This document shows, one piece after another, positions 49,029 through 64,000 of a stretch of 64,000 nucleotides of DNA. The position numbers and the translations under genes are program-made. Positions within the stretch are counted from its first letter, which is position 1, and each line of letters opens with the position of its first letter. The notes below the pieces were generated by a model. It had not been told where the DNA came from and made no database searches. It saw nothing but the letters and a program-made list of their open reading frames with translations. This DNA comes from an uncultured Gemmatimonadales bacterium (GTDB taxonomy: Bacteria > Gemmatimonadota > Gemmatimonadetes > Gemmatimonadales > GWC2-71-9), in contig CAWGED010000003.1 in the NCBI GenBank assembly GCA_963821525.1, positions 90,522-154,521 of the forward strand, in the 5' to 3' direction.

Positions 49029-51110
49029 GGGGCGCGATTACCTCCCGTAGGAACGGCAACGAATTCCAGCGGTGTGCCGGCGACTGTCAGACGCAGCAAA
49101 CGGCGCGGAGGATCAACCGATACGTAGAAGGTCACCTTCTGCTCGTCTCCCTCGAGATCCGCCATGTAAGCCTGGAAGGAACCAGCCGGAACCGAAACCG
49201 TTCCCACGGCCCGCACCGTGAGGGTGAGCGTCCGGACTCGGTTCTGCCCCGAGGCGAACACCGGAATGGTCCACCGCAGATTCGGCGCCCACTTGAGAGC
49301 GGGGAGCAGAGCCTGGAGGGCATTGTCGTCCAGAATACCCGCGGGAACGATGGTGTCCACCGCCAGCGTCATCGGACCGTTCGGCCCGAGTACATGGGCC
49401 GAGCCTTTCACTTTACCGCTGCCATAGGCGAGATCGATCTTGGTGTCCTGGCCCCGCATCTTCCCGGTCTGGGCCAGGCTTCGCATGCGACCGGCCCGGT
49501 CCATCGAGACCTTGGTCGTCTGACTGATCACGTTGCCGATGTTGGTCGTTTCGGTGTAGAGCAGGCCGTCGCCGCTCTGCTCCAGGGTGGAGACTTGCAC
49601 TCCGACCGTCCGACCCTGCGCTACTACCAGGAGGCTGTCCTTCCTCGGCACGAGAAGAGTCGTATCGAGCTCCAGCACGGCGACCTTGGGCTCGAAATCC
49701 GCCGGCGTGAGGGCAGTCCCGTCAGGACCGATTACCGCAATCGGTGCAATCGTACTCAACCCTTTGTAAACCTGGCTCGCGTTTCCCACTACCACGATCA
49801 GACAGGAATCAGGCCGCACCACCGTGCGTGCGGCGGTTCTGAACCTGGTAGCGCTCAGTGATGCGACCTGTTTCCGATAGTTGGTGATCGAGCTGGCCGG
49901 CAAGCCCCATGCGCCGGGCCTTGAGGACCGCGCTGGCCTGCTGGTTCATCGACTGAATGCCGAGCGGGTAGCCTCCCGTCAGCTCCGCCTGGGCACGCTT
50001 CAATTCCTCGGGAGCAATCGTGTCGGTGCGGACCTTCCGCATCTGCGCCAGCAGCTCGCGCACCGCCGAATCGGTGACAGTGGCCCGCACTTCGGCACCC
50101 ACCTGGTACATGCCCAGCCCGTTGGTTTGCGACAGAGCGGAAGCAGGCGACTCGGCCCAGCGCCGCTCGTCGCGCAAGGAGCGAACGAGGCGGCTGTTCG
50201 ACGAGCCACCGAACACCCGGTCCACCACCGTGGCGGCGTAGTAGGTCGAGTCTCCTCCGCGAATCGTGGTATTGCCCATCAGAATGCTGGAGGTCTCGGC
50301 ACTGGGCACGTGCACCAGGATGATCCGGGTCTTCGCCCGAATCGGAGACTTGGCCGGTAGCGGCGCCGGGGCGACACCCTTCCAGTCTCCGAATGCGTCG
50401 GTCACCAGCTTGCGCGCGTCGGCCAGGGTGATATCGCCCGCAATCACCAGCTGCGTAGCCGAAGGGCGGAACCGGGCCAGCCGGAAGGCTTCGAGGTCCC
50501 TCCGTCCGACGTTGTTGAGCGTGAGTGGTGTGGACCTGATCGCATAGGGATGCGAGCCGTAGAGTGCGGCAAGAAAGATCCGCGAGGCCAGGTTCCCCGA
50601 TTGAGCGTTGTCGGCCTGAACGCTCGCGACTGCCTGGGCGCGGACCTTGTCTACTTCCTGCGGATCGAGATGCGGCCGGAGGACCGCGTCGGCCAGGAGG
50701 CCCATCGCGACATCGATGTGCTCTGACAGCGCATCAGCGGTGAGAGTCAGGAAATCGGGATCCACTGCTGCGCTCAGCGAACCACCCACCTGTTCGATCG
50801 CCGCGGCGACGCTGTCCGCGTCACGGCTTCCTGCTCCCCTGGTGAGCAGGGAGGCGAGCAGATCGGCGGTGCCGGCCTGACTGGCAGGATCGTAGGCAGT
50901 CCCCGCGGGCAGCGACATGGCCATCGACACCACGGGCTGCCGGTGATTCTCCAGCACCGTCACCTTGAGCCCGTTAGGCAGCACGAACGGCTGCAGGGCA
51001 GGGGCTGGAGCCGCTGCGACCGGAGTGGCCGCCGGTGGAGCTGTCGGGAATTGGGCCGCTGCGTTGCTCGCGATCAGCGACAAACCGAAGAACAGGACAG
51101 GCGATTTCAT
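49025..51110 (-). CDS. M16 (pitrilysin-like) peptidase, inactive subunit with C-terminal beta-rich extension; frameshift ~49890
   Basis: LPNGLKVTVLENHRQPVV, LLTRGAG, LVIAGDI, FGGSSNSRL; no HxxEH. Confidence 0.85.
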
Positions 51111-52516
51111 GACGAGGCTCTCCCCGGCTGAACGATGACAGTGAGCCCGTTCTGCGGGGTTAGATAGCTCGCCGCAACTCGCTTCACGTCCTCCGCCGTC
51201 ACCGCCATGTATCTCCCGACGTCCTTATTGACCGCGTCCGCCGATCCCAGGAACGTGGCGGCGTGCTGCAAAGCCTCGGCGACGTCCTGAACTCGCTGCC
51301 GGCTGTTGACCGCACCGGCCAGGAAGAAATTCTTGGCCCGAGTCAGCTCGGCATCGGTAACGCCCTTGGTCCCGATCTCGACCATCTGTGCCCGAAGCAA
51401 GGCGGCCACCGAATCTCCGCGGACGCCGGTGTTGGCCACCGCGAAGACCGCGAACACCGACGGCCCTCGGCGTCGGCTCACCAGGTCGGCCTGGATTCCT
51501 GCGACGAGATTCGCCTCACCCGAGAGCGCCACGGCCAATCGGGAATGGGTTCCCTGGCCGAGTATCAGGCCCAGCAGCTCGAGCGCCGGGGTGTCGGCGT
51601 GGTCGTGAGCCGGCGCGCGGAAGAAGAGACCGGCGCCGCCCAATTGTGCGGCTTGGTCCTTGATTTCCTTTCGAGACCCGGCCGCGCCCGTTCCCGGTGC
51701 GCAGGTGAACTTCGGTCTCTCAGGGCCGCCGGGAATGTCTCCGTAGTACTTGGTGATCAGGTCCTTCGCCGCAGCAGGGTCGAAGTCGCCGGTTACGGTG
51801 AGCCGGGCGTTGCGCGGAGTGTAGTAGGTAGAAAAGAAGGGCCGTATCGATGCCACCGTGGCGCTATCGAGCGCACCGGGAGGCGGCAGTGGCGCGTGGG
51901 CGTAGCCGTAGCAGGTGGTGGAATCGAACAGAGCTTCGGTGCCGAGCAGGAATGGGCTGGCGTAGGCCTGCTGGTCCACCCGGTAGCGCCGCTCGTCCCG
52001 CATAACTCTGCGTTCGACTGTCACCGCGGTGTCGTTCAGCGTCAGCGAGCGAAGGCGGTCCGCTTCCAGCCAGAGACCCAGAGCGAGCTGATTGGACGGG
52101 AGCACCTCGTAGAAGCGGGTGATGTCGTCCTCGGTGTCGCTGCTCGCATCGCCACCGGTCTGGCTCACCAGCCGGAGATGGGCACCGGGCTGCACGTTGG
52201 CCGAACCGTCGAACATCAGGTTCTCGGCGAGGTGGGCATAGCCGGCCTGCTTGGGACCTTCATCCCGCACCCCCACGTCATACCACACGCTCACTGCGAC
52301 GACTTGCGCGTTGTGGTCGGGGGACAGAATGACATCGAGGCCGTTGGGCAGCTTGTACTGCTCGACCGGTACCGCTCCGGGGAGCTTCGTCTGCGCCGCG
52401 CCAGTCTGTGGCACGGCGAAGGCCAGCAGGAGGCCGGAGAGCAACCGCCGAATTGTGGAGCAGGAGTTGTTTTGAGGCACCAGGGATGTACGACGCTCAG
52501 AAAGTGGGAGATTCAC
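51107..52516 (-). CDS. M16 peptidase family protein (HxxEN variant)
   Basis: LPNGLDVIL, VWYDVG, GYAHLAENLMFDGS, LWLEADRL, YYTPRNARLTVTGDFD. Confidence 0.88.
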   Translation of the reverse strand: MNLPLSERRTSLVPQNNSCSTIRRLLSGLLLAFAVPQTGAAQTKLPGAVPVEQYKLPNGLDVILSPDHNAQVVAVSVWYDVGVRDEGPKQAGYAHLAENLMFDGSANVQPGAHLRLVSQTGGDASSDTEDDITRFYEVLPSNQLALGLWLEADRLRSLTLNDTAVTVERRVMRDERRYRVDQQAYASPFLLGTEALFDSTTCYGYAHAPLPPPGALDSATVASIRPFFSTYYTPRNARLTVTGDFDPAAAKDLITKYYGDIPGGPERPKFTCAPGTGAAGSRKEIKDQAAQLGGAGLFFRAPAHDHADTPALELLGLILGQGTHSRLAVALSGEANLVAGIQADLVSRRRGPSVFAVFAVANTGVRGDSVAALLRAQMVEIGTKGVTDAELTRAKNFFLAGAVNSRQRVQDVAEALQHAATFLGSADAVNKDVGRYMAVTAEDVKRVAASYLTPQNGLTVIVQPGRASS

Positions 52517-53382
52517 CCGGCACGATCAGGATAGAGGCGCAGACCATTCTCACTCAGGATCTGCCGCTGAACCGCGGGCGGCAGAGGCAAGGCGAGAAAC
52601 TGATCGAGATTTTGACGCAGATCCTTGACGCCCGGGCTGGGCCAGTCGGTGCCCCACACAGTCTTGTGGGCGATTTCACCGAGGCGAGGAAAGTAGTCGA
52701 GCAGCTTCGCCGGCGGGATACCCGAGACCTCGAGCCAGACATTGGGGTGGCGCCGGAGGACGAAAAACGCCTCCTCGCCCCAGAGCGGCCGGCCGCCGTG
52801 GGCCATCACGATCTGGAGATCGGGGAAATCGATCGCCACATCGTCCAGCTCGAGCGGGTTGCCGTATTTGGATCGTGCGCCGGGGAAGATGCTGGTCCCG
52901 GTGTGGATCAGAACCGGCAGGCCTCGATCTTCCGCGCGACGATAGATCCGGCCCAGCTCCTCCAGTCCCTGCGTGTAGGCGTTGGCCGGAAACAGCTGGT
53001 GCGGCGGATGGATCTTGAGGCAGCGAATGCCCAGGCTGATCAGCCGGTCTACGTCCCCTTCGGGATCCTTGGTGAACCGGGGATGCACCCCGCCGAAGGG
53101 GAGCAGGCGCCGCGGATCGGCGGACGCGTACCGCGCGGCGAAGTCGTTGGTGGAATCGTCGAACCCCATGAGGTCGGGGCTCGGGTAGTTGATCAGTCCA
53201 ACCCGGTCGATTCCCGAGGCATCGAGAACCTCGAGCAGCGCCGCCGGATCCTCCATCAGGTGGATCAGCCGGTCCCAGTGATCCTCTTTGCCCTTCCGCA
53301 TCACCTCCATCACCGCCGGCTTGAGCTGCCGCCACGGCTGGATGTGGATGTGCAGGTCGGAGACCGGGTAGTCGGTGGACAT
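52513..53382 (-). CDS. Amidohydrolase_2 family protein
   Basis: DLHIH, LKIHPPHQ, LIHTG, MAHGGRP, WGTDWP. Confidence 0.9.
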   Translation of the reverse strand: MSTDYPVSDLHIHIQPWRQLKPAVMEVMRKGKEDHWDRLIHLMEDPAALLEVLDASGIDRVGLINYPSPDLMGFDDSTNDFAARYASADPRRLLPFGGVHPRFTKDPEGDVDRLISLGIRCLKIHPPHQLFPANAYTQGLEELGRIYRRAEDRGLPVLIHTGTSIFPGARSKYGNPLELDDVAIDFPDLQIVMAHGGRPLWGEEAFFVLRRHPNVWLEVSGIPPAKLLDYFPRLGEIAHKTVWGTDWPSPGVKDLRQNLDQFLALPLPPAVQRQILSENGLRLYPDRAG

Positions 53383-53395
53383 TGTCGGAAAAGCG

Positions 53396-53522
53396 TGAGA
53401 AGTGAGAGGTGAGAGGTGAGAAGGCTGTGATTCCCCAAGATGTTGTGCTTTCAAGCGGCCGTCGAATCCCCCAAGAATGTCATCTGACTCTCCCTCTTAC
53501 TTCTCACCGTTTCCCCTCTTAC
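53396..53522. repeat. Inverted heptamer arrays (GTGAGAR)4 ... (YTCTYAC)n
   Basis: gtgagaagtgagaggtgagaggtgagaag ... ctcttacttctcaccgtttcccctcttac. Confidence 0.8.
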
Positions 53523-53530
53523 CCGCCTTT

Positions 53531-54313
53531 TCATCGTCCCTTGAACTCCGCCTTCCTCTTCTCCAGAAACGCCTTCACCCCCTCCGCCTTGTCCTCGCTC
53601 GAGAACGCCAGACCGAAGAGGGCGGTTTCCTGCCGGAGCCCCTCGTCGAGCGAGCCGCGCACGGAGGCCCGTACCGCTTCCTTTATAAGGCGCAGTGCGA
53701 CGGGGCTCTTCTCGGCGATTCCGGCGGCGAGTCCGAGCGTGTGCTCCCGGAGCGCCGCCGCGGGAACCACCTCGTCCACCAGGCCGATGCGGAGCGCCTC
53801 AGCCGCGTCAATCAGCGCACCGCTGAAGAGCAGCTTGAGCGCGGTCCCGGTGCCTACCAGCCGGGGCAGCCGCTGCGTCCCGCCACCGCCGGGAATGATG
53901 CCGAGGTTGATCTCGGGCTGGCCCAGCTTGGCCGAGTCGGCCGCGATGCGGATGTCGCACGCCATGGCGAGCTCGCACCCACCGCCCAGGGCGAAGCCGT
54001 TGATCATCGCGATCACCGGTTTGGGAAACCGGTCCACCGCATCGAAGATCGTGGGCTCGTTCATGACCCGGTATTGATCGACCGGCGTCCGTCCCTCGAA
54101 CTCGGTGATATCGGCACCCGCCACGAAGGCCTTGTCCCCGGCGCCGGTGACGACCACGACCCGGATCGCATCGTCGTGGCGCAGCGTGTCGAGACTCTGG
54201 ATGAACTCTCTCCGCGTCGCCTGATCGAGCGCATTCCGCTTCTCGGCGCGGTTGATCGTCAGCACCGCAACACGGTCTATCTTCTCAACCAGGACATTGC
54301 TCGAAGTTGACAT
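53531..54313 (-). CDS. Enoyl-CoA hydratase (PaaF/Crt-like)
   Basis: AFVAGADI, ALGGGCELAMACD, GQPEINLGIIPGGGGTQRL. Confidence 0.92.
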   Translation of the reverse strand: MSTSSNVLVEKIDRVAVLTINRAEKRNALDQATRREFIQSLDTLRHDDAIRVVVVTGAGDKAFVAGADITEFEGRTPVDQYRVMNEPTIFDAVDRFPKPVIAMINGFALGGGCELAMACDIRIAADSAKLGQPEINLGIIPGGGGTQRLPRLVGTGTALKLLFSGALIDAAEALRIGLVDEVVPAAALREHTLGLAAGIAEKSPVALRLIKEAVRASVRGSLDEGLRQETALFGLAFSSEDKAEGVKAFLEKRKAEFKGR

Positions 54314-54332
54314 TATTCTGGAGCGTTGGTGC

Positions 54333-54406
54333 GTAGCTGTAGCTTAGTGAGCTGCTAGTCAATTACGCTAATAGCTAATAGCTAATAGCTAATAACTGAC
54401 AGCTCA
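54333..54406. repeat. Heptamer array (GCTAATA)4 with a degenerate partner arm
   Basis: gctaatagctaatagctaatagctaataactgacagctca. Confidence 0.85.
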
Positions 54407-55267
54407 CCTCGCCACCTGTAGAAGCCCTCCCCGCTCTTCTTGCCCAGCTTCCCCTCCGCCACCAGCCGCCGCAGGATCGCCGGAGGTTCGTATTGTGCCC
54501 CCCCCAGCGTCTGATGGAGATATTCCGCGATCTTGAGCCGCACGTCGAGCCCCACCAGGTCGGTCAGCTTGAGCGGGCCCATCGGGTGGTTGTAGCCCAG
54601 CTCCATGGCGCGATCGATGTCGGCAGCGCTCGCCACGTTCTCCTCGACCATGCGCATCGCTTCGAGTCCCAGGACGACGCCGAGCCGGCTGGAGGCGAAG
54701 CCGGGCGAGTCGCGCACCACGATGGCTTCCTTGCCCAACGCCTTCACGATCTCCAGGGCCTCGCCTCTGGCTTCCTCGGTCGTCCGCTCGTGAACCACGA
54801 TCTCCACCAGCTTCATCAGGTGCACTGGATTGAAGAAGTGCAGCCCCAGGAACCGGCCGGAGCAGGGCAAGTCGCTTTGGCGATCTCGGCGATCGAGAGG
54901 GACGACGTGTTGCTTGCCAGCAGGGCCCGAGAGCTTGGCGCTGGTCGCGGCCTTCTTGAGGACGGCCTGTTTGACGGCGAGGTCCTCGACCACCGCTTCG
55001 ATCACCAGATCCGAACCCCGCGCCGCTTCGACGATGTCCGAGGTCGGATGGATTCGTCGCTGAATCGCGTCCGCCACCGCCCGCTCCATCTTGCCGCGGC
55101 TCACGGCCCCGTCCAGGTTGCGCGCAATGCTGGCCTGCGCCGCGGCCAGTGCCTCGGGCCGCTCGTCGGTGAGCCATACGTCCCAGCCCGCGCCGGCTGC
55201 GGCCTGGGCGATGCCGATGGCCCATCGTGCCGGCGCCGATCACCGTGACCCGTTCAATCCCGCTCAT
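54382..55267 (-). CDS. 3-hydroxyacyl-CoA dehydrogenase (PaaH/Hbd-like), frameshifted
   Basis: VIGAGTMG, VIEAVVEDL, GLHFFNP, DSPGF, HPMGPLKLTDLVGLD, LGKKSGEGFY. Confidence 0.9.
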
Positions 55268-55984
55268 GCATGCCTCCGGTGACAACGGCGTGAATCAGGT
55301 CCGGAAAGTTGCCGCAGATCCCGTCTACTCCCATCTTCGCCAGACCAGAGATCTCCGCTTCCGTGTTCGCGGTCCAGGCGATGACCCGGCATCCTGCCTT
55401 GTGCATGAGCTGAACCAGGTCCTGGTCGATCAGGTGGGCTTCCTGCCATAGCACATCTGCTCCAGCGGTCTTCAGTACGGCAACGGGATCGAGCAGGTAC
55501 GAGGCGAGCAGCACGCCGCGCGCAAGGCTCGGCCGCTTCTGTCCGAGCCGAGCGATGATACGATGATCGAAGCTGTGCACGGCGTAGCGCTTGGGTGTCG
55601 GACCACGATCCAGCGTTTCGAAGCAGGCGATCATCGAACGATGCGGGAAGCGACTTCACCTCGACCCAGACATCGAGCCCGTCGAGCAGGGTCGAGCGCC
55701 TGGGCGAGGGTAGGAATCTCCTCCCCGTTCGGAAGCCGGTGGTGAGCAATGTCGGTCGAGGACAACCCCGAGATCAACCCAGCCCCGGCAATGGCGTAGT
55801 CGTGATGAACGATCAGGACGCCATCGCCGGTCGCGTGCACATCCAGCTCCACTCCGTCGGCACCGAGTTGCTTCGCCAGCCGGAAGGCGCTGGGGGAGTT
55901 CTCGTAGGCGATGCCGGAGGCGCCTCTATGCCCTATGCACGACGGGCGGCGGCCATCAGCCGTCAGCCATCGGCCGTCAGCCAT
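55254..55984 (-). CDS. Glycerophosphodiester phosphodiesterase family protein, frameshifted
   Basis: IGHRGASG..ENS, GADGVELDVHAT.DG...VHHD, VEVK, SFD, AWTAN, GVDGI. Confidence 0.88.
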
Positions 55985-56059
55985 TGATCGTCTGCTGACG
56001 GCTAACGCCTAGCGGCTGAAGGCGCCAATTACCAATTACCAATTGCCAATTACCAATTG
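55953..56059. repeat. Composite heptamer arrays (GCCRTCA)5 / (GCTRACG)n inverted pair, plus (CCAATTR)5
   Basis: gccatcagccgtcagccatcggccgtcagcc ... gctgacggctaacg ... ccaattaccaattaccaattgccaattaccaattg. Confidence 0.9.
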
Positions 56060-56069
56060 TAGTTCCTGG

Positions 56070-57224
56070 CTAGTTCTCATCCGCCTTCTTCGGCTCTATC
56101 CAATCGTTGTCCTTGAAGATGTCCCGCAACGCCGCCCGGTCTTCCGCCGTCGGCGTCACCGAGGCGATATACGCCGGGTAGGCCTCAGCCGAGAGCTCAT
56201 TGCCACTCACGTCGCAGGGCTTGCGCGCGTAGACGCCGATGCGGCGGTTGAACTTGAGTTCCGGCACATACAGATGCCGGTCCCTGTCAGCGATCGCCGT
56301 GTTGAGCCGAGCCACGAGCCGGACGATCTCCTGTCGGTATAGCTCGCGGCTGGCCTCGTTCAGGTGGGCAACATCGGCCGGATCGCTGGTCTCCCGTTCG
56401 TTGAACCGGCCCTTGAGACCCCATACGTAGGCCCAGTGCGCGCTCGACGAGTTGTCGGTGCCAAAGAGGTCGAACGCCGTCGGAATCCACTTGTTGAAGT
56501 AGCGCTGGATAATCTCCGGTGGAATCCGGCCGGCTTTCACGATCCGGAGCAGGCCGTTGTTCCCGGTGCCCAGGTGGAAGCTCTCCTCCTTGAGCATCGG
56601 TCCCATGGAACGGGCCAGGGGATGGAAAGCGGAGGTGGACAGCATCTTGAGCTGGAACTTCCCGTCCCGGTCGATGTACTGGGTGTAGGTAAAGAAGTCC
56701 AGCCAGTTCTCCACGATTTCATTGAAGGAGCCGAGCAGACGCTGGCCCTCCTCGGCCCGCCGCTCGAGTAGCTTCTGCGCCTCGCGTTTCCCCTCGTCCC
56801 CGAAGTGCTGGCACAACAGGTAAGACATCTGCCAGCCATGCCGCATCTCCTCGCTCATTACCCGCATCAGCGCGAAGAGGTCATAGTCGCTGGGCGCATT
56901 CTGAAGCAGCGCCCTCTGCTGTTCCACCGAGGCGAATTCGGTGTCGCCCTGATAGACGATCAGGTTGAGCAACGCGTCGCGGATCCGCTGATCCGGGATA
57001 TGCATGAGGGTGGGCCACTTGTTGCGGCCCTTGTAGTGACCGAACTCGATCATCTCCGCCTCGGGCTCGCCGAACTTCGCGTCGAAGCTGAAGGTCGCGA
57101 AGCTCTTGCCGCGAAATTCTTCGCTCACGGCGGAGCCCTTGAATTCCTTCGCGGCGACTCCAATGGAGTCCTGCCAGTAGTGGAAGTAGTCGATCCAGTC
57201 GTCGAAATTGTTCACTCGGCGCAT
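56070..57224 (-). CDS. BoxB-like diiron aromatic-acyl-CoA epoxidase (384 aa, PaaA/BoxB family)
   Basis: QGDTEFASVEQQR, SEEMRHGWQM (ExxH), IDRDGKFQL, MLKEESFH (ExxH). Confidence 0.85.
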   Translation of the reverse strand: MRRVNNFDDWIDYFHYWQDSIGVAAKEFKGSAVSEEFRGKSFATFSFDAKFGEPEAEMIEFGHYKGRNKWPTLMHIPDQRIRDALLNLIVYQGDTEFASVEQQRALLQNAPSDYDLFALMRVMSEEMRHGWQMSYLLCQHFGDEGKREAQKLLERRAEEGQRLLGSFNEIVENWLDFFTYTQYIDRDGKFQLKMLSTSAFHPLARSMGPMLKEESFHLGTGNNGLLRIVKAGRIPPEIIQRYFNKWIPTAFDLFGTDNSSSAHWAYVWGLKGRFNERETSDPADVAHLNEASRELYRQEIVRLVARLNTAIADRDRHLYVPELKFNRRIGVYARKPCDVSGNELSAEAYPAYIASVTPTAEDRAALRDIFKDNDWIEPKKADEN

Positions 57225-57235
57225 GATGGCCTCAT

Positions 57236-58034
57236 TCAGTAGCGAAAACGGGGAGGGCGTCTGCCCAGATATGCGGCGAGTCCTTCTGCCGCGTCGCTGC
57301 TTTGGAAACAGGCGAGCTGGTTGGCTCGCTCCAAGTCGAGCATGGTCGAGAAGTCGCGCGATTCGCCGGCGTAGACCGCGGCCTTCGAGAGTCCCACGGC
57401 CGGGGCAGGGAGGCCGGCTAGCGACGCCGCCCATTCGGCTGTTGCCGACTCCAGCTCCGCCGCCGGCACCACCTTGTTCACCAGCCCGAGTGCGAGACAC
57501 TCGGCGGCCGGGATCAACCGGCCCGACCAGAACAGCTCCAGCGCCCGCGCGGTCCCGACCTGCCGGGCCAGGAAATGCGTCGACCCGATGTCTGGATGCA
57601 GGCCGAGCTTGTGAAAGACGAAGCCGAGCGACGCCTGGTCTGACGCGATCCGGAGATCACAGGCCAGGGCGATCCCGGCACCACCTCCAACCGCGGGCCC
57701 GTTCAGGCTCCCCAGTACCGGCTTGGCGGTCCCTCTGAGCAGCGCGAACCAATTCGTTGCCGGCTTCGAGCAGGCGCATCGCATCGGCATGGCGTCCCTG
57801 GTGGACGCAGTCGTGCATGTAGCGCACATCGGCACCGGAGCAGAAGGCGCGGCCGGCACCCGTCACCACGATCGCGCGCACCGCGGGATCCCGCACCATG
57901 GCCTGCGCCGCGGCGACCATCTCTTCCCGCATCACGGCCTCGAAGGCGTTCAGCCGATCGGGCCGGTTGAGCGTCAGGGTGCCGACTCCGCCTGCTACCT
58001 GGAGCCGGACAAACTGGAAAGCATCACTGCTCAC
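57236..58034 (-). CDS. Crotonase-family isomerase (PaaG-like), frameshifted
   Basis: LNRPDRLNAF, AFCSGADV, GGGAGIALACD (no catalytic Glu), LGLHPDIGST (Asp). Confidence 0.8.
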
Positions 58035-58037
58035 CGA

Positions 58038-59240
58038 TCACTCCTTCACGCTCTCTACGACCAGCGCGATGCCCTGACCAACTCCGATGCACATCGATGC
58101 GACTCCGTATCGCCCGCCGGTGCGGCGCAGGGCATGCACCAGCGTCGTCAGGATCTTGGCACCCGAGGCGCCGAGGGGATGGCCGAGCGCGATGGCGCCG
58201 CCGTAGATGTTGACCTTGGCGGGATCGAGGCCCAGCTCGCGGATGCAGGGAATCGCCTGTGCCGCGAACGCTTCGTTCAGCTCGACCAGGTCCAGATCGG
58301 ACGCCTTGATGCCGGCGCGAGCCAGTGCCTTCCGCACCGCTGGCACCGGACCGATACCCATCACCGATGGATCCACTCCCGCGACGGCCGACGAAATGAT
58401 GCGCGCCATGGGTGAGAGACCCAGCTCCCGCATCGCGTCTCCGCTCACCACGGTCATGGCGGCAGAACCGTCGTTGATCCCGCTGGACGAAGCCGCCGTG
58501 ACGGTTCCATCGGTCACGAACGCCGGCTTCATCTTGGCGAGCGACTCGAGTGTCACCCCGGCCCGGGGATGTTCATCGGTGGTGAAGGACTTCCCGGCGT
58601 TCTCCTTGCCCGGCAACGGGACCGGCACCAGCTCGTCGGCGAAGACTCCAGAGGCGAGTGCCTTCTGCGCCCGGGCCTGGCTCTCCACCGCGAACGCATC
58701 CTGCTCCGCTCGCGAGACGCCGTATTGCGCCGCCACCTTCTCGGCGGTTTCACCGAGGGAGATGGTCCACTCCTTCTTCATCCTGGGATTGGTGAACCGC
58801 CAGCCCACGGTGCTGTCCGCCATCGGCGGCGGCGTCCGATTCCAGGGCGCTCCCGACTTGAGCATGACGTAGGGTGCTCGGGTCATGTTCTCGACCCCGC
58901 CGGCGATGAACACCGATCCCTCTCCTGAGCGGATCGCCTGCGCCGCGCTGATCACCGCCTGCAGGCCGGAGCCGCAGAGCCGATTCACCGTCTGCCCCGG
59001 AACTTCGACCGGCAACCCGGCGAGCAGCGCCGCCATCCGCGCGACGTTGCGATTGTCTTCGCCCGCCTGGTTGGTGCAGCCGAAGATGACGTCTTCGATT
59101 CGTGCAGGCGGGATTCCCGAACGCTCGACTACGGCCTTGACCGCAATGGCCGCGAGATCATCGGCCCGAACCTCGGCGAGTGCTCCGCCGGCTCGGCCCA
59201 CGGGAGTGCGCAGTGCAGTTGTGATGAAAGCGTCAGTCAT
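58038..59240 (-). CDS. 3-oxoadipyl-CoA thiolase (PcaF/PaaJ-like)
   Basis: GCTNQAGEDNRNVARM, NRLCGSG, ELNEAFAAQ, ALGHPLGASG, MCIGVGQG. Confidence 0.92.
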   Translation of the reverse strand: MTDAFITTALRTPVGRAGGALAEVRADDLAAIAVKAVVERSGIPPARIEDVIFGCTNQAGEDNRNVARMAALLAGLPVEVPGQTVNRLCGSGLQAVISAAQAIRSGEGSVFIAGGVENMTRAPYVMLKSGAPWNRTPPPMADSTVGWRFTNPRMKKEWTISLGETAEKVAAQYGVSRAEQDAFAVESQARAQKALASGVFADELVPVPLPGKENAGKSFTTDEHPRAGVTLESLAKMKPAFVTDGTVTAASSSGINDGSAAMTVVSGDAMRELGLSPMARIISSAVAGVDPSVMGIGPVPAVRKALARAGIKASDLDLVELNEAFAAQAIPCIRELGLDPAKVNIYGGAIALGHPLGASGAKILTTLVHALRRTGGRYGVASMCIGVGQGIALVVESVKE

Positions 59241-59245
59241 TCGGT

Positions 59246-59357
59246 TTAGCCGTCAGCCATCAGCTGTTAGCCGTTAGCGATTAGCGGTTAGCTGTTAACG
59301 TCTCACGTCCCACGTTTCACGCTTTTCCCTCTCACTTCTCACGTCTCACGTCTCACG
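59246..59357. repeat. Two unrelated heptamer arrays abutting: (TYAGCYR)n and (GTCTCAC)n
   Basis: ttagccgtcagccatcagctgttagccgttagc... then gtctcacgtcccacgtttcac...ctctcacttctcacgtctcacgtctcacg. Confidence 0.9.
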
Positions 59358-59361
59358 TTGT

Positions 59362-60795
59362 TCAGAGTCCCACCCACACCGTCTTCGTCTCCAGATACCC
59401 ATCCAGCGCCGTCCGGCCCAGGTCGCGGCCGAAGCCCGATTGCTTGTAGCCGCCGAAAGGAGCGGCGGGATCATAGATGTTGTAGGTGTTGATCCAGACG
59501 GTACCCGCCCTGATCGCGTGCGCCACGCGATGCGCCTTGGAGATGTCGCGGGTCCAGATCCCTGCCGCCAGGCCGTACATCGACTGGTTTGCGAGATGGA
59601 CGGCCTCCTCGACATCATCGAAGGCCAGCACGGCGAGGACCGGCCCGAAGATCTCCTCGCGGGAGATCGTCATCTCGGGCTTCACCCCGTCGAAGATGGT
59701 GGCCTCGACGAAGTAGCCCTTGCCGTTCACCTTGGCCGCGTTGCCGCCGGCCACGACGCTCGCGCCTTCCGCCTTTCCCTTGCCGATATAGCCCAGCACG
59801 GTCTCCTGTTGCTTCTTGGAGACCACGGCGCCGAGCCGGGTGTTCTTGTCGAACGGATCACCAGGGACCAGCTTCTTCGCCCGCTCGGCGAGCTGTTCGA
59901 CCACCTGGTCCTTCACTTTACTCTCGACCAGGAGCCGGCTTCCTGCGGCGCAAACTTCTCCCTTGCCGTAAAAGATTCCGTTCTGCGCTCCCTTCACTGC
60001 GGCACCCAGGTCCGCATCCGCGAAGACAATGTTGGGACTCTTGCCACCCAGCTCGAGAGTCAGCCGCTTCACGGTGTCGGCCGCGTCCTTCATGAGCCGC
60101 TTGCCGACCTCGGTCGAGCCGGTGAAGGAGATCTTGTCTACTCCGGGGTGCCGCACGAGCGCGGCTCCGGCGGTTGAGCCGGCACCGGGAACGACGTTGA
60201 ACGCTCCGGCCGGTAAGCCGGCTTCACGCATCACGTCCGCCATCGCCAGCGCGGTGAGCGGGGTTTCCGTCGCGGGCTTGAGCACCACTGTGCATCCAGC
60301 GGCCAGCGCAGGCGAGAATTTCCAGCCCGCGATGTTGAGCGGGAAGTTCCAGGGGACGATCGCGCCAACCACGCCGACCGGTTCGCGACGAATGTAGGTG
60401 AAGTAGGGACCTTCGACCGGCACCGTCTCGCCGCTCAACTTGTCGGCCCAGCCGGCGTAGTATCGGAGAGTCTCGATCGTCATCGAGACGTCGATCTTCG
60501 ACTCGAAGAAGGGCTTCCCGTTCTCGACCGTCTCGAGCTTGGCGACTTCATCGAGCCGGGAAGCGAGAATGTCGGCCGCCTTGGCCAGCATCGCGCCCCG
60601 CTTCCTTCCCGAGAGCTTGCGCCACTCGTCCGACTCGAAGCAGGTCCGCGCCGCACCAACCGCCGCGTCCACATCCCCCGCATCAGCCTCGGCCACCTGT
60701 GCCGCGACTTCTTCGGTCGCCGGATTGATGACGTCGAAGCGTTTCGCCCCGGTTGCCGGGCGCCACTCGTTGTTGATGAAGAGATCGGTGTGCAT
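59362..60795 (-). CDS. NAD(P)-dependent aldehyde dehydrogenase
   Basis: PWNFP, FTGSTEVG, LELGGKSP, GEVCAAGSR, EEIFGPV, PFGGYKQSG. Confidence 0.95.
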   Translation of the reverse strand: MHTDLFINNEWRPATGAKRFDVINPATEEVAAQVAEADAGDVDAAVGAARTCFESDEWRKLSGRKRGAMLAKAADILASRLDEVAKLETVENGKPFFESKIDVSMTIETLRYYAGWADKLSGETVPVEGPYFTYIRREPVGVVGAIVPWNFPLNIAGWKFSPALAAGCTVVLKPATETPLTALAMADVMREAGLPAGAFNVVPGAGSTAGAALVRHPGVDKISFTGSTEVGKRLMKDAADTVKRLTLELGGKSPNIVFADADLGAAVKGAQNGIFYGKGEVCAAGSRLLVESKVKDQVVEQLAERAKKLVPGDPFDKNTRLGAVVSKKQQETVLGYIGKGKAEGASVVAGGNAAKVNGKGYFVEATIFDGVKPEMTISREEIFGPVLAVLAFDDVEEAVHLANQSMYGLAAGIWTRDISKAHRVAHAIRAGTVWINTYNIYDPAAPFGGYKQSGFGRDLGRTALDGYLETKTVWVGL

Positions 60796-60805
60796 TCAGT
60801 CTCGG

Positions 60806-60958
60806 TCAGGCCGTCAGCCGTCAGCCGTTAGCCGTTAGCCGTTAGCCGTTAGCCGTTAGCGATTTAGCAATGGATTCTGGTGCCCCACCACCCACCTCCC
60901 CACATCCAAACATCCCCACATCCCTCATCCCTCATCCCTCAATCCCTCAATCCCTCAC
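60806..60958. repeat. Two unrelated arrays: (TYAGCCG)n and (ATCCCTC/AATCCCTC)n
   Basis: tcagccgtcagccgttagccgttagccgttagccgttagccgttagc ... catccctcatccctcatccctcaatccctcaatccctca; the latter begins in the TGA stop of the upstream gene. Confidence 0.9.
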
Positions 60959-61785
60959 TTCGCCTTAAACGTCGCCATCCTCTTCTCCGTGTACGCCGCA
61001 ATCCCTTCCTTCGCGTCTTCCGACTGGAACAGCTGCTGCTGCAGCTCGCGCTCGATGGCCAGGGCGCTCTCGAAGGGAATCTCGGCGCCGGACTGCACCG
61101 AGCGCTTGATGGCTCCCACGGCCTTGGAGGCCTTGTTGGGCGGGCAGAACTGCCGAGCGTAGAGCTGCACTTGATCCCAGAAGCCATCCGGCTCGAAGAC
61201 CTGGTTCACGACGCCCAGCTCCTGCGCCATCTCGAAGGAGAAGGTTTCGCCGGTGGCCATCAGCTCGATGGCCTTGGACTTCCCCACGATGCGGCAGAGC
61301 CGCTGGGTGCCGCCGGTGCCCGGGAGCACGCCCAGGTTCACTTCGGGGAGACCGATCTTCCCCGCATTGCGCCGCGCGATGCGAAGATCGCACGCCATGG
61401 CAATCTCGAGTCCTCCGCCGACGCAGTGGCCATTGATGGCCGCGATGGTGAGCTTCGGCGTCTGCTCCAGGCGGTTCAGCGTCTCGTTGGCGTGGAGACA
61501 GAAGAAGTACTTGAACCGCGGGGTGACACTGTTGAGCATCCCGATGTTGGCGCCGGCGGAGAAGAACTTCTCGCCGTGGCCGCGCAGCACGATCACATGG
61601 GCGTCCTCCGCCATGCGGGCATCGAGAATGGCGGCATCGAGCTGCCGCATCATTTCATAGGTATAGGTATTGGCCGGCGGATCGTTCAGCGTGATGATCG
61701 CGAGCCCGTCCTCGACTTCATAGTTCACCAGCACCTTGTCGGTGGGGGTCGGGGCGCCGGGACGCGGCGTGGCGGTGGCGGTCAA
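60955..61785 (-). CDS. Single-domain crotonase resembling the BoxC N-terminal (catalytic) half
   Basis: FSAGANIGML, KYFFCLHANETLN, GGGLEIAMACD, LPEVNLGVLPGTGG. Confidence 0.75.
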   Translation of the reverse strand: MTATATPRPGAPTPTDKVLVNYEVEDGLAIITLNDPPANTYTYEMMRQLDAAILDARMAEDAHVIVLRGHGEKFFSAGANIGMLNSVTPRFKYFFCLHANETLNRLEQTPKLTIAAINGHCVGGGLEIAMACDLRIARRNAGKIGLPEVNLGVLPGTGGTQRLCRIVGKSKAIELMATGETFSFEMAQELGVVNQVFEPDGFWDQVQLYARQFCPPNKASKAVGAIKRSVQSGAEIPFESALAIERELQQQLFQSEDAKEGIAAYTEKRMATFKAK

Positions 61786-61800
61786 GGGGGCGTTCCTCCG

Positions 61801-62403
61801 TTAGGGAGCAGTAATCCGTGTAGCGACGTTGGAGACCGGTGTCGTGTACCCGTTCAGGAAGAGGCGGGACATTTCCTCAGCCAGCTTCTCAGGCGGGAGT
61901 GGGCCGGTGGGATGATACCAGGTGTAAATCCAGTTGATCATGCCGAACAGGGCGAAGGCCGCGGTCTGCCGCGAGATCTGCGCTTCGGGTACCTGATCCA
62001 GCAGTTCGTGAAGCAGGTTGGCGTATTCCCGCTTGCGCCGGCGTAACTGCGCCCGCATCGTCCCTTCCAGCTCATCCGACTCGTGGGACAGGACCTTCAT
62101 CTCGTCCATGTGCGCGGCGAAGAAGGTCACGTGATGCTGGATGAATGCGGCGAGCCTGGCCTCGGGCTCCTCTCCCGCCTGGGCCACCGCCTCGCGGGCC
62201 CCGATGATCACCAGGGAAAAACAGCGATCCTGGATCAGGTAGAGAAGCTCCAGCTTGCTGGTTACATAATGGTAGATGCCGGCCAGGCTGAAGCCGCTGG
62301 CCTTGGACAGGTCCCTCATGGAGGTGGCCTGGTAGCCGCGCTCGGCATAGGTCCGGGCGGCAACGGTAAGGAGATGCTGGAGACGCTTGTCGTAGGCGAG
62401 CAC
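61801..62403 (-). CDS. TetR family regulator (PaaR/KstR2-like)
   Basis: HTH RGYQATSMRDLSKASGFSLAGIYHYVTSK; C-terminal FGMINWIYTWYHPTG. Confidence 0.9.
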   Translation of the reverse strand: MLAYDKRLQHLLTVAARTYAERGYQATSMRDLSKASGFSLAGIYHYVTSKLELLYLIQDRCFSLVIIGAREAVAQAGEEPEARLAAFIQHHVTFFAAHMDEMKVLSHESDELEGTMRAQLRRRKREYANLLHELLDQVPEAQISRQTAAFALFGMINWIYTWYHPTGPLPPEKLAEEMSRLFLNGYTTPVSNVATRITAP

Positions 62404-62408
62404 GGGCC

Positions 62409-62428
62409 GTCCGAACGTTCGTTCGGAC
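62409..62428. promoter_or_regulatory. Palindromic TetR operator
   Basis: GTCCGAACG-TT-CGTTCGGAC, perfect 9-bp arms, between the -10 box and the GTG start. Confidence 0.75.
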
Positions 62429-62431
62429 CGG

Positions 62432-62460
62432 AAGCTAGGCCGGCCCTCCCGGGCGGTCAA
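62432..62460 (-). promoter_or_regulatory. Sigma70-type promoter of the tetR-headed operon
   Basis: Minus strand TTGACC(62460-55)-N17-TAGCTT(62437-32). Confidence 0.7.
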
Positions 62461-62496
62461 GCTTAACGTTCGCCACGCCCCCGCGTCTTCCCTGAA

Positions 62497-63045
62497 ATGC
62501 CCGTTCCGGCCAGCCCCACGCCGCCTGATGACGCCGACCTCGTCCGCGCTTACCAGGGCGGCAGCGAGGCCGCGGCAACCGAGTTGGTACGCCGGCACGG
62601 GGCGCCGGTTGCCCGGTTTCTGGTGGGCCTGGGCGCCGATTACGCCGATATAGATGACCTGGTGCAGGAGACGTTCTTTCGAGCCTTTCGCCGGATCGCA
62701 GGCTGGCGGGGGGACGCCGGATTTCGAAGCTGGATCTTTACCATCGCGAGCAACTTGCTCAAAGACGAACACAGGCGCCGCAAGGCCCGGCGTTCGGTTC
62801 CGCTGGAGGACCATGATCTCCCCTCCCGGGACAATCCCGAATCGGCCTTCGCTCTGCGGGAGACGGAACGCCGGCTCGTGGCCGCGCTGCAGACCCTCCC
62901 CCGGCTGCAACGGGAGGTGTTCCTGCTTCGGGCCCAGCAGGGCATCGAGTACCCGGAGATCGCCACGACGTTGGGAACCACCGCGGGAGCCGCGCGGGTC
63001 CACTTTCACCATGCGGTGAAACGGCTCAAGGAGATGATCGCATGA
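62497..63045 (+). CDS. ECF RNA polymerase sigma factor
   Basis: DADLVRAY, DDLVQETFFRAF, FRSWIFTIASN, LPRLQREVFLL, YPEIATTLG. Confidence 0.92.
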   Translation: MPVPASPTPPDDADLVRAYQGGSEAAATELVRRHGAPVARFLVGLGADYADIDDLVQETFFRAFRRIAGWRGDAGFRSWIFTIASNLLKDEHRRRKARRSVPLEDHDLPSRDNPESAFALRETERRLVAALQTLPRLQREVFLLRAQQGIEYPEIATTLGTTAGAARVHFHHAVKRLKEMIA

Positions 63046-63542
63046 CCTCCTGCGAGGAAATGCTGGAACGGATGCCGGCCGTCGCCCTGGGCGAGGCGCA
63101 ATGGACCGATGAAGAGGCGTCGCATCTGGCGGGCTGTGCCAGTTGCCAGGCCGAATGGTCGTTGATCAGGAATGCTGTGGCAGTTGGGAGTCAGGCTCCG
63201 GCGCTGGATCTGGAGAAGACAGGCGCCGCGGTCCTTGCGCGTCTTCGTGCCGAGGGGCGAGAGAGGCGGTTGCGCCGAGCCGGGCTGCTGACCGGGCTCG
63301 CGGCGGCGGCGGCGGTGGCGCTGGTTGTGTGGAGCAGGGTACCGCACCATACCCAGCGGACTGTTCCTGAGGCCTTCCGCATCCCGGTCGCGGAACTCGA
63401 CTCGCTGGACAATGGAGAACTCGAATCGGTGCTACAGGATCTCGATGCCCCGCTCGGCGCGGGCACACTCAATAGCACTCCGGGTCTGGGAGACCTCGAC
63501 GACGTTCAACTGGAGCGGCTGCTCCGCTCCCTGGAGGGGTGA
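63042..63542 (+). CDS. Zinc-binding membrane anti-sigma factor
   Basis: HLAGCASC (HxxxCxxC) plus one TM helix; coupled to the ECF gene. Confidence 0.8.
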   Translation: MTSCEEMLERMPAVALGEAQWTDEEASHLAGCASCQAEWSLIRNAVAVGSQAPALDLEKTGAAVLARLRAEGRERRLRRAGLLTGLAAAAAVALVVWSRVPHHTQRTVPEAFRIPVAELDSLDNGELESVLQDLDAPLGAGTLNSTPGLGDLDDVQLERLLRSLEG

Positions 63543-64000
63543 TGCGGAACTTCTGGTTGGTCCCGCTGGTGTTTGGGCTCGTCTCACCGCTTGCCGCCCA
63601 GGAGCTGAACGACGACCCGAGGGCGAGCGACCTGCGGCGGCAGATCGAGGAACGCTTCACCGCCCGCGTGAAGGAAGAGCTGGCGCTCACCGACCAGCAG
63701 ACCACCCGCATGAAGTCCACGGTGCGGGACTGGTTCCTCAAGCGGCGGGACATGGAGGACGAGAACCGCCGACTCCGCGATGCAATGGCCGGCCAGCTGC
63801 GGCCCGGTGTCGCCGCCAATAAGGACAGCGTGGCGAAGCTTACCGATGCCATGCTGGACCTCAAGGTGCGCTACGCCGAGAGCTTCAAGGATGAGATCAA
63901 GGAGATGTCGGGCTACCTGGATCCACTGCAACGGGCCCAGTTCATGGTCCTGCGGGAACGCCTGATCGAGCGGGTACGTGAGGTGAGGGAGCAGCGGGAC
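63542..64000 (+). CDS. Spy/CpxP-like periplasmic helical protein (truncated by the window edge)
   Basis: ATG overlaps the upstream TGA; signal peptide, ELALTDQQ and LDPLQRAQF motifs; frame open to the end. Confidence 0.65.
   Translation, partial: MRNFWLVPLVFGLVSPLAAQELNDDPRASDLRRQIEERFTARVKEELALTDQQTTRMKSTVRDWFLKRRDMEDENRRLRDAMAGQLRPGVAANKDSVAKLTDAMLDLKVRYAESFKDEIKEMSGYLDPLQRAQFMVLRERLIERVREVREQRD

Follow-up and report, generated by a model that had tools for sequence, protein, structure and literature searches.

Most of what is known about the Box pathway comes from Proteobacteria; the ring-opening step of this pathway releases formate, and a role is attributed to Cys111 of BoxC. Box-type chemistry was reportedly also described, in 2001, in Bacillus stearothermophilus. 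The closest described systems are the Box enzymes of Aromatoleum (Azoarcus) evansii and Paraburkholderia xenovorans (structures 3PER/3PM5 and 2W3P), the phenylacetyl-CoA (Paa) pathway of Escherichia coli (PaaABCE, PaaG, PaaZ, PaaJ, PaaF, PaaH, PaaK and PaaX) and the 4-hydroxybenzoyl-CoA reductase HcrCAB (structure 1RM6; models TIGR03193-5). In the accessible parts of PMC4498308 and PMC6449761, Box chemistry is set out as epoxide formation, hydrolytic opening, semialdehyde oxidation, isomerisation, hydration, oxidation and thiolysis. Here we describe an operon of an uncultured Gemmatimonadales bacterium that we read, with moderate confidence, as encoding a benzoyl-CoA epoxide (Box-type) pathway assembled from other parts. 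It lies in a window of 64,000 nucleotides (the whole stretch of DNA analysed: assembly GCA_963821525.1, contig CAWGED010000003.1, positions 90,522 to 154,521) and extends on the minus strand from a tetR gene to an amidohydrolase gene. Around the operon, the analysis of the window took in the open reading frames at 48000-64000. The host genome is 81% complete (19 contigs, 4.33 Mb), a limit carried by every genome-wide absence given below.

The operon is genuine and has been conserved across Gemmatimonadales. Gene order is kept from tetR through the amidohydrolase gene across the 80 best related loci (out of at least 591 relatives), so the arrangement is not due to chance. By their titles, 75 of these loci are Gemmatimonad*, one is 'bacterium HR33', three are Acidobacteriota and one is Rokubacteria. 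Many are truncated at contig ends; the GDPD-family gene is found in 75 of the 80, the 3-hydroxyacyl-CoA dehydrogenase gene in 73, the thiolase gene in 71, the aldehyde dehydrogenase (ALDH) gene in 66, the first crotonase gene in 62 and tetR in 58, and the amidohydrolase gene at 52513-53382 (67/80) is the conserved end of the block. A first-pass annotation had listed nine genes, and all nine lie on the minus strand as it ordered them; three of them are frameshifted, the amidohydrolase gene was omitted and the start of tetR was most likely misplaced. The motifs that it named are also there. In the diiron protein they are QGDTEFASVEQQR, DRDGKFQL and the two ExxH, which read EEMRH and EESFH; the first crotonase has AGANIGML, KYFFCLHANET and GVLPGTGG.

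The diiron protein (56070-57224, minus strand, 384 a.a.) has the fold and the iron ligands of BoxB and five of seven residues of its benzoyl pocket. Its structure model, built from a 54-row alignment (predicted local distance difference test, pLDDT, 94.8), has template modelling (TM) scores of 0.87-0.89 (0.88) to BoxB structures and of ~0.5 (0.52) to PaaA, and 3PER is matched with an E-value of 8.7e-51. All six ligands are kept (E96, E126, H129, D185, E214 and H217, equivalent to BoxB E120, E150, H153, D211, E240 and H243). Seven pocket residues of BoxB are given in the available part of PMC5489048 (Q116, T119, S123, F193, F203, F206 and T210), and five are kept: Q116, T119, S123 and F203 in 92 of 92 short-BoxB sequences (duplicates included), and F193 in all 14 short forms aligned. 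On the BoxB model TIGR03225 the protein scores 223.5 bits against a cut-off of 499.1 and so falls outside BoxB as that model defines it (44 bits on the PaaA model). It is ~90 a.a. shorter than BoxB (~470 a.a.), with deletions of 19, 7, 19, 23 and 7+12 residues spread along the chain. Canonical BoxB forms its own fully supported clade in two trees (99; 100/100). A distinct short BoxB-type enzyme, as proposed in the first-pass annotation, is thus borne out: the protein lies outside the canonical clade, and BoxA was not found elsewhere in the genome. By its fold, ligands and pocket it may be a benzoyl-CoA 2,3-epoxidase. A wider BoxB-type superclade takes in canonical BoxB, the short forms (possibly paraphyletic; approximately unbiased (AU) test, p 0.30) and a third class of ~420 a.a. 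Members of this third class (L168-L173) are stand-alone BoxB-type diiron proteins of Acidobacteriota, 30-36% identical, with an altered first-ligand motif, QASTELGSIQQH.

The regulator also points to benzoyl-CoA. The tetR gene (61801-62403, minus strand) encodes a TetR-family repressor (TetR_N and TetR_C_24 domains; the top PDB matches are TetR proteins) of 200 a.a. if translated from a GTG at 62403, which is most likely the start, rather than 62460, because a conserved candidate operator occupies 62409-62428, immediately upstream. This operator is a 20-bp palindrome with the core CGAACG-NN-CGTTCG. It is found, with at most two mismatches, in 59 of 59 tetR upstream regions (45 exact, 11 with one mismatch and three with two), and the site is the sole match of at least 20 bits in the 4.33-Mb genome. 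The core alone has one match in the window against 0.53 expected, which is not significant, so the weight of the operator rests on its conservation. A promoter-like pair, TTGACC-17-TAGCTT, lies at 62460-62432 directly before the operator; it was spotted by eye and is under the threshold of the promoter/terminator scan, which called no promoter by its rule and gave nothing of use.

With a matrix trained on Gemmatimonadota sites, and sites called at 20 bits or more, the operator was found in five of five new Gemmatimonadales operons and before bcrC in three of three loci for anaerobic benzoyl-CoA reductase (62-150 bp upstream), whose TetR proteins are 37-40% identical to that of the operon. It was also found in 4/11 canonical boxCB loci, 5/11 acidobacterial short-BoxB loci, 2/4 operons with a divergent PaaA and 2/6 third-class loci. 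No site of this strength was found in 11 canonical paa loci, in 11 loci around homologues of the first crotonase in other Acidobacteriota, in six plasmid or E. coli loci or in 12 ligase loci. The effector of TetR would therefore be benzoyl-CoA. That a TetR protein can sense an aroyl-CoA has a precedent in MbdR, described in the available part of PMC4424350 as a regulator of the anaerobic 3-methylbenzoate pathway; MbdR is weakly similar to the operon TetR (4UDS, E 7.5e-5) and belongs to a different TetR subfamily. Some Gemmatimonadales carry a full anaerobic benzoyl-CoA reductase cluster (L140, L141 and L142; BcrCBAD are all over cut-off in L141), and these clusters also hold an HcrA-like gene, with an FAD subunit that scores as XdhB rather than HcrB.

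By gene content, the oxygenase of the operon is an exchangeable cassette. When PF05138 matches were sorted by number and score in 120 Gemmatimonadales genomes (each at least 90% complete), 38 had short BoxB, nine a divergent PaaA/C, 38 a canonical PaaA/C and 35 none, with no overlap. We inspected loci of five short-BoxB, four divergent-PaaA/C and 11 canonical-PaaA/C genomes. The four divergent-PaaA loci hold the same operon with short BoxB missing, and in the three that are uncut by a contig end the PaaA/C-type genes lie between tetR and the first crotonase gene; canonical paa clusters have a different gene context. The divergent PaaA has xGDTELxS and DRAG, BoxB-like near the first ligand, where canonical PaaA has HAHSEIVG and DGAA. 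On plasmids of Thermus thermophilus and of two Haladaptatus species, divergent PaaA/D/B/C genes are accompanied by a crotonase of the same family (41% identical) and a gene of the benzoate-CoA-ligase family. Among 201 Acidobacteriota genomes (a set for which no completeness values were reported), 36 have canonical BoxB with boxC, and the BoxC-less ones include 11 with short BoxB, 10 with the third class and 12 with divergent PaaA. In all, the operon variant is present in 47 of the 120 Gemmatimonadales and 33 of the 201 Acidobacteriota sampled. Two unpublished genomes enter the tallies as one row each: G075 (short BoxB, Hcr-like) and G147 (short BoxB, crotonase, Hcr-like, amidohydrolase). Canonical paa clusters of Gemmatimonadales lack PaaK and lie beside a fused 2-oxoacid dehydrogenase E1 (L101:13841-15940, L105:13401-15464), possibly a direct source of phenylacetyl-CoA.

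The first crotonase (60955-61785, minus strand, 276 a.a.) is a single-domain relative of the catalytic domain of BoxC and likely the ring-opening dihydrolase. In an ungapped BLAST alignment (34% over 223 residues, oxyanion motif included) its C96, E127 and E148 fall on C111, E146 and E168 of BoxC, as the first-pass annotation had noted for the Cys; the ring-opening role is not thereby established, since the gene also stands beside canonical boxC, scores 80.6 bits on the BoxC model and is placed differently by different trees. The motif FCxx[AT]xE is present in 88 of 97 crotonase orthologs and 13 of 13 BoxC proteins, and in none of 32 PaaF-like and 88 PaaG-like proteins; GTGG is likewise common to the crotonase and BoxC, and missing in the PaaF-like and PaaG-like sets. 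The best solved relative is 2PPY (E 3.7e-70), which we take to be a Geobacillus protein, and when the PDB is searched with BoxC, 2PPY ranks first among solved structures other than BoxC itself, with 82 bits versus 66. The crotonase joins BoxC in two of three trees (Shimodaira-Hasegawa (SH) 85; 100/99); the trees hold 67, 38 and 33 rows of 104 representatives, the latter two thinned by hand with long branches removed. On TIGR03222 it matches as one domain, where BoxC membership takes two domains and 712 bits, and a FadJ-like gene of the same genome scores 74.6 bits. A one-domain ring-opening crotonase is plausible because, in the part of PMC4498308 available, the active centre of BoxC, with two catalytic Glu residues, lies in the N-terminal domain only. 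In Acidobacteriota the crotonase is present in 33/33 BoxC-less oxygenase genomes (32/32 without G147), in 23/36 with BoxC, in 3/132 with none of these oxygenases and in 0/5 with canonical PaaA. Judged from genome content, this distribution is what a partly redundant equivalent of BoxC would show.

Benzoyl-CoA could be supplied by two kinds of enzyme. The window genome encodes, unlinked to the operon, an HcrCAB-like molybdoenzyme (G000:C4:155918-159874) of three subunits with an extra [4Fe-4S] Cys insert in beta. HcrCAB (1RM6) is its best solved relative by far (E 4.8e-191; next 2.2e-84). The Hcr-like alpha subunit (760-861 bits) is found in 43 of the 47 operon genomes (42/46 without G075), with two further partial cases, and in one of 73 other Gemmatimonadales; a separate, higher-scoring Hcr class in seven other genomes was left uncounted, and it lies in benzoyl-CoA reductase clusters in three of three checked. 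In Acidobacteriota, with five candidates scored per genome (E 1e-150), the Hcr-like enzyme was found in 10/11 short-BoxB, 4/10 third-class, 12/12 divergent-PaaA, 23/36 canonical and 14/132 other genomes. The genes lie within the operon in six of 12 short-BoxB loci outside Gemmatimonadota (Acidobacteriota), where the HcrA of one Terriglobia locus is over the cut-off (1026.8 versus 994.55), and in seven loci with crotonase and PaaG-like genes and no oxygenase nearby. In the Terriglobia operons L157-L162, hcrC comes after a gene for a small rhodanese-like protein (named by eye). The other kind is the benzoate-CoA ligase: all seven matches of at least 600 bits are in operon genomes, and ligases over the cut-off lie within the Thermus and Haladaptatus clusters. 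A GctAB-type CoA transferase, tried as an operon partner, occurs in some Terriglobia operons; in Gemmatimonadales (80 of the 120 genomes searched) it does not track the operon (13/47 versus 11/33). Two Haladaptatus clusters (L121, L123) hold pairs of UbiD-family decarboxylases, the latter also a CoA transferase, possibly an extra feed of benzoyl-CoA.

Since the shared operator, the pocket residues, the ligases and the Hcr-like partner all agree, the substrate is most likely benzoyl-CoA rather than phenylacetyl-CoA. The first-pass annotation had proposed an epoxide-type pathway with an unknown aryl-CoA substrate, possibly bridging Box and Paa; the epoxide-type pathway stands, the substrate no longer appears open, and the bridging applies to gene content and the swappable oxygenase and not to the substrate. 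It also reported BoxA, PaaBCE, PaaZ and a CoA ligase to be missing from the window; in our searches of the genome, no boxA, boxC, paaC or paaK was found. The best BoxA match there has 23 bits. BoxA was likewise found in none of the 57 BoxB-type genomes among the 201 Acidobacteriota (eight candidates scored per genome), although 36 of these carry canonical boxB together with boxC; such a lack is therefore widespread in these phyla rather than peculiar to the operon. Canonical boxCB without boxA can be seen in Acidobacteriota loci L163-L167 and L186-L191. BoxR (XRE plus shikimate-kinase domain) was not found beyond a partial match of 167 residues elsewhere in the genome, and TetR heads the operon. 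No match was found in the genome to PaaE or full PaaZ, and PF05138 has a single match. Neither PF00175 (the FNR-type reductase domain) nor a dedicated NuoF reductase was found; the two NuoF-like genes, judged by eye from neighbouring sequence, appear to be parts of complex I and of a formate-dehydrogenase-like cluster. The latter (G000:C19:309976-314782, with its NuoF-type subunit) could dispose of formate from ring opening.

In the proposed pathway, benzoyl-CoA would come from the HcrCAB-like enzyme, acting on 4-hydroxybenzoyl-CoA, and from enzymes of the benzoate-CoA-ligase family (their co-occurrence is as given above; reaction and direction are our suggestion), and would release TetR from its operator. 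The short diiron enzyme would use O2 and two electrons to form 2,3-epoxybenzoyl-CoA. The electrons may come from a general carrier, and free ferredoxin is our guess; a 7Fe-type ferredoxin motif occurs at G000:C4:209579. The single-domain crotonase would then hydrolyse the epoxide or oxepin to 3,4-dehydroadipyl-CoA semialdehyde and formate, the weakest step of the scheme, after which the ALDH would oxidise the semialdehyde and the other operon enzymes would carry out isomerisation, hydration, oxidation and thiolysis. A broader version is tentative: major uncultured soil phyla, with Thermus and Haladaptatus, may share one benzoyl-CoA hub, in which a one-domain BoxC ancestor stands behind four interchangeable diiron oxygenases (one a four-subunit PaaA-type enzyme acting on benzoyl-CoA), an O2-tolerant 4-hydroxybenzoyl-CoA reductase feeds it, so that 4-hydroxybenzoate would be degraded aerobically via prior removal of its hydroxyl, and a single TetR/operator serves both this route and the anaerobic benzoyl-CoA reductase.

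A number of observations weigh against this scheme. In the oxygenase, two pocket residues differ, F206 being Tyr in 92/92 sequences and T210 being Ile or Val across the family (Ile in the window protein), and T210 is said in the available part of PMC5489048 to set regioselectivity. For the crotonase, MAFFT offsets its Cys from that of BoxC by four columns, the Cys is missing in the Thermus, Haladaptatus and one Rokubacteria protein, the third tree places BoxC with FadJ (SH 78) and the AU test keeps a grouping of BoxC with FadB/J (p 0.435). On the supply side, HcrA and HcrB of the window genome are under their cut-offs (839.6 versus 994.55 and 266.6 versus 404.55), the motif is CGPKRGHG where HcrA has CGAMRGHG, and the operator is absent at 20 bits from these genes as from all nine stand-alone hcr-like loci (one, L139, has a site of 18.7 bits), so that no co-regulation was seen there or at the ligase loci. 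No ligase is over the cut-off in 20 of the 47 operon genomes, and the best one of the window genome is frameshifted and lies inside an anthranilate/tryptophan cluster. No electron donor for the diiron enzyme was identified in the genome. The genomes of the co-occurrence counts are related samples, so the counts may reflect few events and Fisher values overstate.

The weakest step invites a rather unlikely alternative, in which the substrate is again benzoyl-CoA, the first crotonase is a lower-pathway hydratase or isomerase for dehydroadipyl-CoA, and ring opening falls to the PaaG-like protein, the amidohydrolase or an unlinked enzyme. Of the 36 Acidobacteriota with an intact BoxC, 23 also have the crotonase, often adjacent and in several loci directly after boxCB, which is why we grade its ring-opening role as likely only; BoxC in these genomes retains its catalytic residues, so a lower-pathway hydratase remains a competing reading. 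Its two catalytic Glu are also those of ordinary hydratases, the second hydratase of the operon is often missing, BoxC is a mid-ranked match (E 3.5e-23) in the PDB search with the crotonase, and proteobacterial box operons optionally hold an enoyl-CoA hydratase thought to act in the lower pathway (PMC6449761, part available). Such a role fits less well with a gene present in every BoxC-less oxygenase genome and dispensed with in some that have BoxC (Fisher p 7e-5, related genomes not being independent), or with the motifs that it shares with BoxC and not with the PaaF-like and PaaG-like sets. The amidohydrolase, considered as a BoxC substitute, is the poorer fit, being present in 25 of the same 33 genomes. 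That the whole operon serves phenylacetyl-CoA, with short BoxB in place of PaaABCE and the crotonase and ALDH in place of PaaZ, would account for its full PaaG-, PaaF-, PaaH- and PaaJ-like set, for the mutual exclusion of the three oxygenase types in the 120 Gemmatimonadales and for the PaaA/C-type module of sister genera; we consider it improbable, since the pocket is BoxB-like, even the divergent PaaA departs from canonical PaaA at its motifs, canonical paa loci lack the operator and canonical-PaaA Acidobacteriota the crotonase, and BoxB is inactive on phenylacetyl-CoA (PMC4498308, part available). PaaK is rare in both groups and therefore does not discriminate.

Two further alternatives keep the operon and change what surrounds it. 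The HcrCAB-like Mo/FAD/Fe-S enzyme might be the electron donor instead of a feeder, oxidising some compound and supplying the diiron centre with electrons by way of its extra [4Fe-4S] cluster. It would fit that the enzyme accompanies both oxygenase types almost one to one in Gemmatimonadales, that the window genome retains the four Cys of the HcrB insert and that no BoxA was found across BoxB-type Acidobacteriota; we give the idea little chance, as no such enzyme was found in any of 10 genomes with canonical BoxB and no BoxA, searched again with every candidate scored, or on the three Thermus and Haladaptatus plasmids (the Haladaptatus clusters hold a 2Fe-2S ferredoxin instead), and two Gemmatimonadales relatives lack the four-Cys pattern. 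Likewise very unlikely, in our view, is a substituted aroyl-CoA such as hydroxy- or aminobenzoyl-CoA, for which an altered pocket would shift the specificity or the position of attack. The changes F206Y and T210I/V and a further fixed one, P121F, would be explained, the commonest ligase (in family f1) lies within the anthranilate cluster, and the conserved amidohydrolase and GDPD have no explanation in the benzoyl-CoA scheme; the operator, however, is common to pathways for unsubstituted benzoyl-CoA, the anthranilate cluster has a flavin monooxygenase of its own and the operon has no ring-cleavage dioxygenase. This anthranilate-type cluster (G000:C4:282000-292000, L093; similar in L132-L134) holds the frameshifted benzoate-CoA-ligase-family gene with, partly by eye, short-chain dehydrogenase/reductase (SDR), RidA-like, crotonase, acyl-CoA dehydrogenase, salicylyl-CoA 5-hydroxylase-like and tryptophan-dioxygenase-like genes.

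The remaining enzymes are all encoded on the minus strand and, apart from the GDPD-family protein and the amidohydrolase, could fill the later steps of the benzoyl-CoA scheme. The ALDH (59362-60795, 477 a.a.), the proposed semialdehyde dehydrogenase, is not of the BoxD/PaaZ type (26% identical to the ALDH domain of E. coli PaaZ). The thiolase (58038-59240) is nearest to 3-oxoadipyl-CoA thiolase (548 bits versus a cut-off of 605; 54% identical to E. coli PaaJ). The PaaG-like, isomerase-type crotonase (57236-58034) has a GLxPDxG motif and no catalytic Glu pair, and TIGR02280 gives its intact relatives 224-241 bits (cut-off 345). The GDPD-family phosphodiesterase (55254-55984) is missing from acidobacterial versions of the operon, and the 3-hydroxyacyl-CoA dehydrogenase is encoded at 54382-55267. 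The enoyl-CoA hydratase (53531-54313) is an ordinary PaaF/Crt-like one, missing from many related operons, and the Amidohydrolase_2 family protein (52513-53382) also occurs in Terriglobia, Thermus and one Haladaptatus cluster. The frameshifts are one extra base at ~57743 in the PaaG-like gene (versus three relatives), two at 55621-55694 in the GDPD gene and one near 55215 in the dehydrogenase gene. They look like assembly indels, because the genes are whole in nearly all relatives (single-frame versions in 72 of 74 matches for GDPD, 72 of 73 for the dehydrogenase and 71 of 74 for the PaaG-like gene, the last possibly inflated by adjacent crotonases) and the ligase elsewhere in the genome is split likewise.

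Most of the intergenic gaps contain short tandem repeats with 7-base units that differ from gap to gap (60810-60860, 60915-60957, 59246-59358, 56025-56058, 55952-55984, 54367-54394 and 53395-53423). An extracytoplasmic function (ECF) sigma factor gene with a likely anti-sigma gene (62497-64000) is a conserved divergent neighbour (54/80 loci), and a pair of M16 peptidase genes (49809-52516) often lies downstream (41/80 and 38/80). A uracil-DNA-glycosylase-like gene is found inside L092 and L157.

Neither the operon and its operator nor the short BoxB family or the Hcr link is described in the full-text literature within our scope, which leaves out most subscription journals and supplements, whose genome tables may list such clusters; the available part of PMC13186573 has no mention of Gemmatimonad* or Acidobacter*, and that of bioRxiv 10.1101/2025.11.25.690425 gives annotation counts for benzoyl-CoA genes in soil metagenome-assembled genomes (MAGs). 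Database labels for these genes are BoxB, PaaA/PaaI or plain hydratase. Most likely, the operon points to an unstudied route for the degradation of aromatic acids without the usual Box partners. Gemmatimonadales and Acidobacteriota are abundant soil groups, and the variant bears on their part in the breakdown of plant aromatics; if correct, aromatic catabolism would be read differently from soil genomes, PaaA-type enzymes could serve benzoate and reductive dehydroxylation would be placed inside an aerobic pathway. The family of 2PPY, its solved structure, may supply the genes behind the Box-type chemistry of Bacillus stearothermophilus, and the plasmid clusters offer cultured hosts in Thermus thermophilus and Haladaptatus.

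Compared with the known systems, the operon shares with Box an oxygenase of BoxB fold that keeps the six iron ligands and five of the seven pocket residues, a crotonase showing the Cys/Glu/Glu pattern of BoxC and beta-oxidation to 3-oxoadipyl-CoA. It differs in its shorter oxygenase outside the canonical clade, the lack of BoxA, a one-domain crotonase of 276 a.a. where BoxC has 556, a generic ALDH in place of BoxD, TetR in place of BoxR, no ligase in the operon and the HcrCAB-like association. With Paa it has in common the strategy of a CoA-thioester epoxide, the PaaG-, PaaF-, PaaH- and PaaJ-like genes and, in sister genera, a PaaA/C-type module in the same operon; unlike Paa, it has a one-subunit oxygenase with a benzoyl-type pocket and another operator, and no PaaC, PaaE, PaaZ or PaaK was found in the genome. 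The Hcr-like enzyme resembles HcrCAB down to the four-Cys insert of its beta subunit; as found in Gemmatimonadales, it belongs to a sister subfamily that scores under the cut-offs, its genes are not linked to those for benzoyl-CoA reductase, and it is paired with an O2-dependent oxygenase. By its predicted functions the system works like the Box pathway, yet falls outside BoxB, BoxC and the Box system as these are defined, and is best described as a Box-pathway variant.

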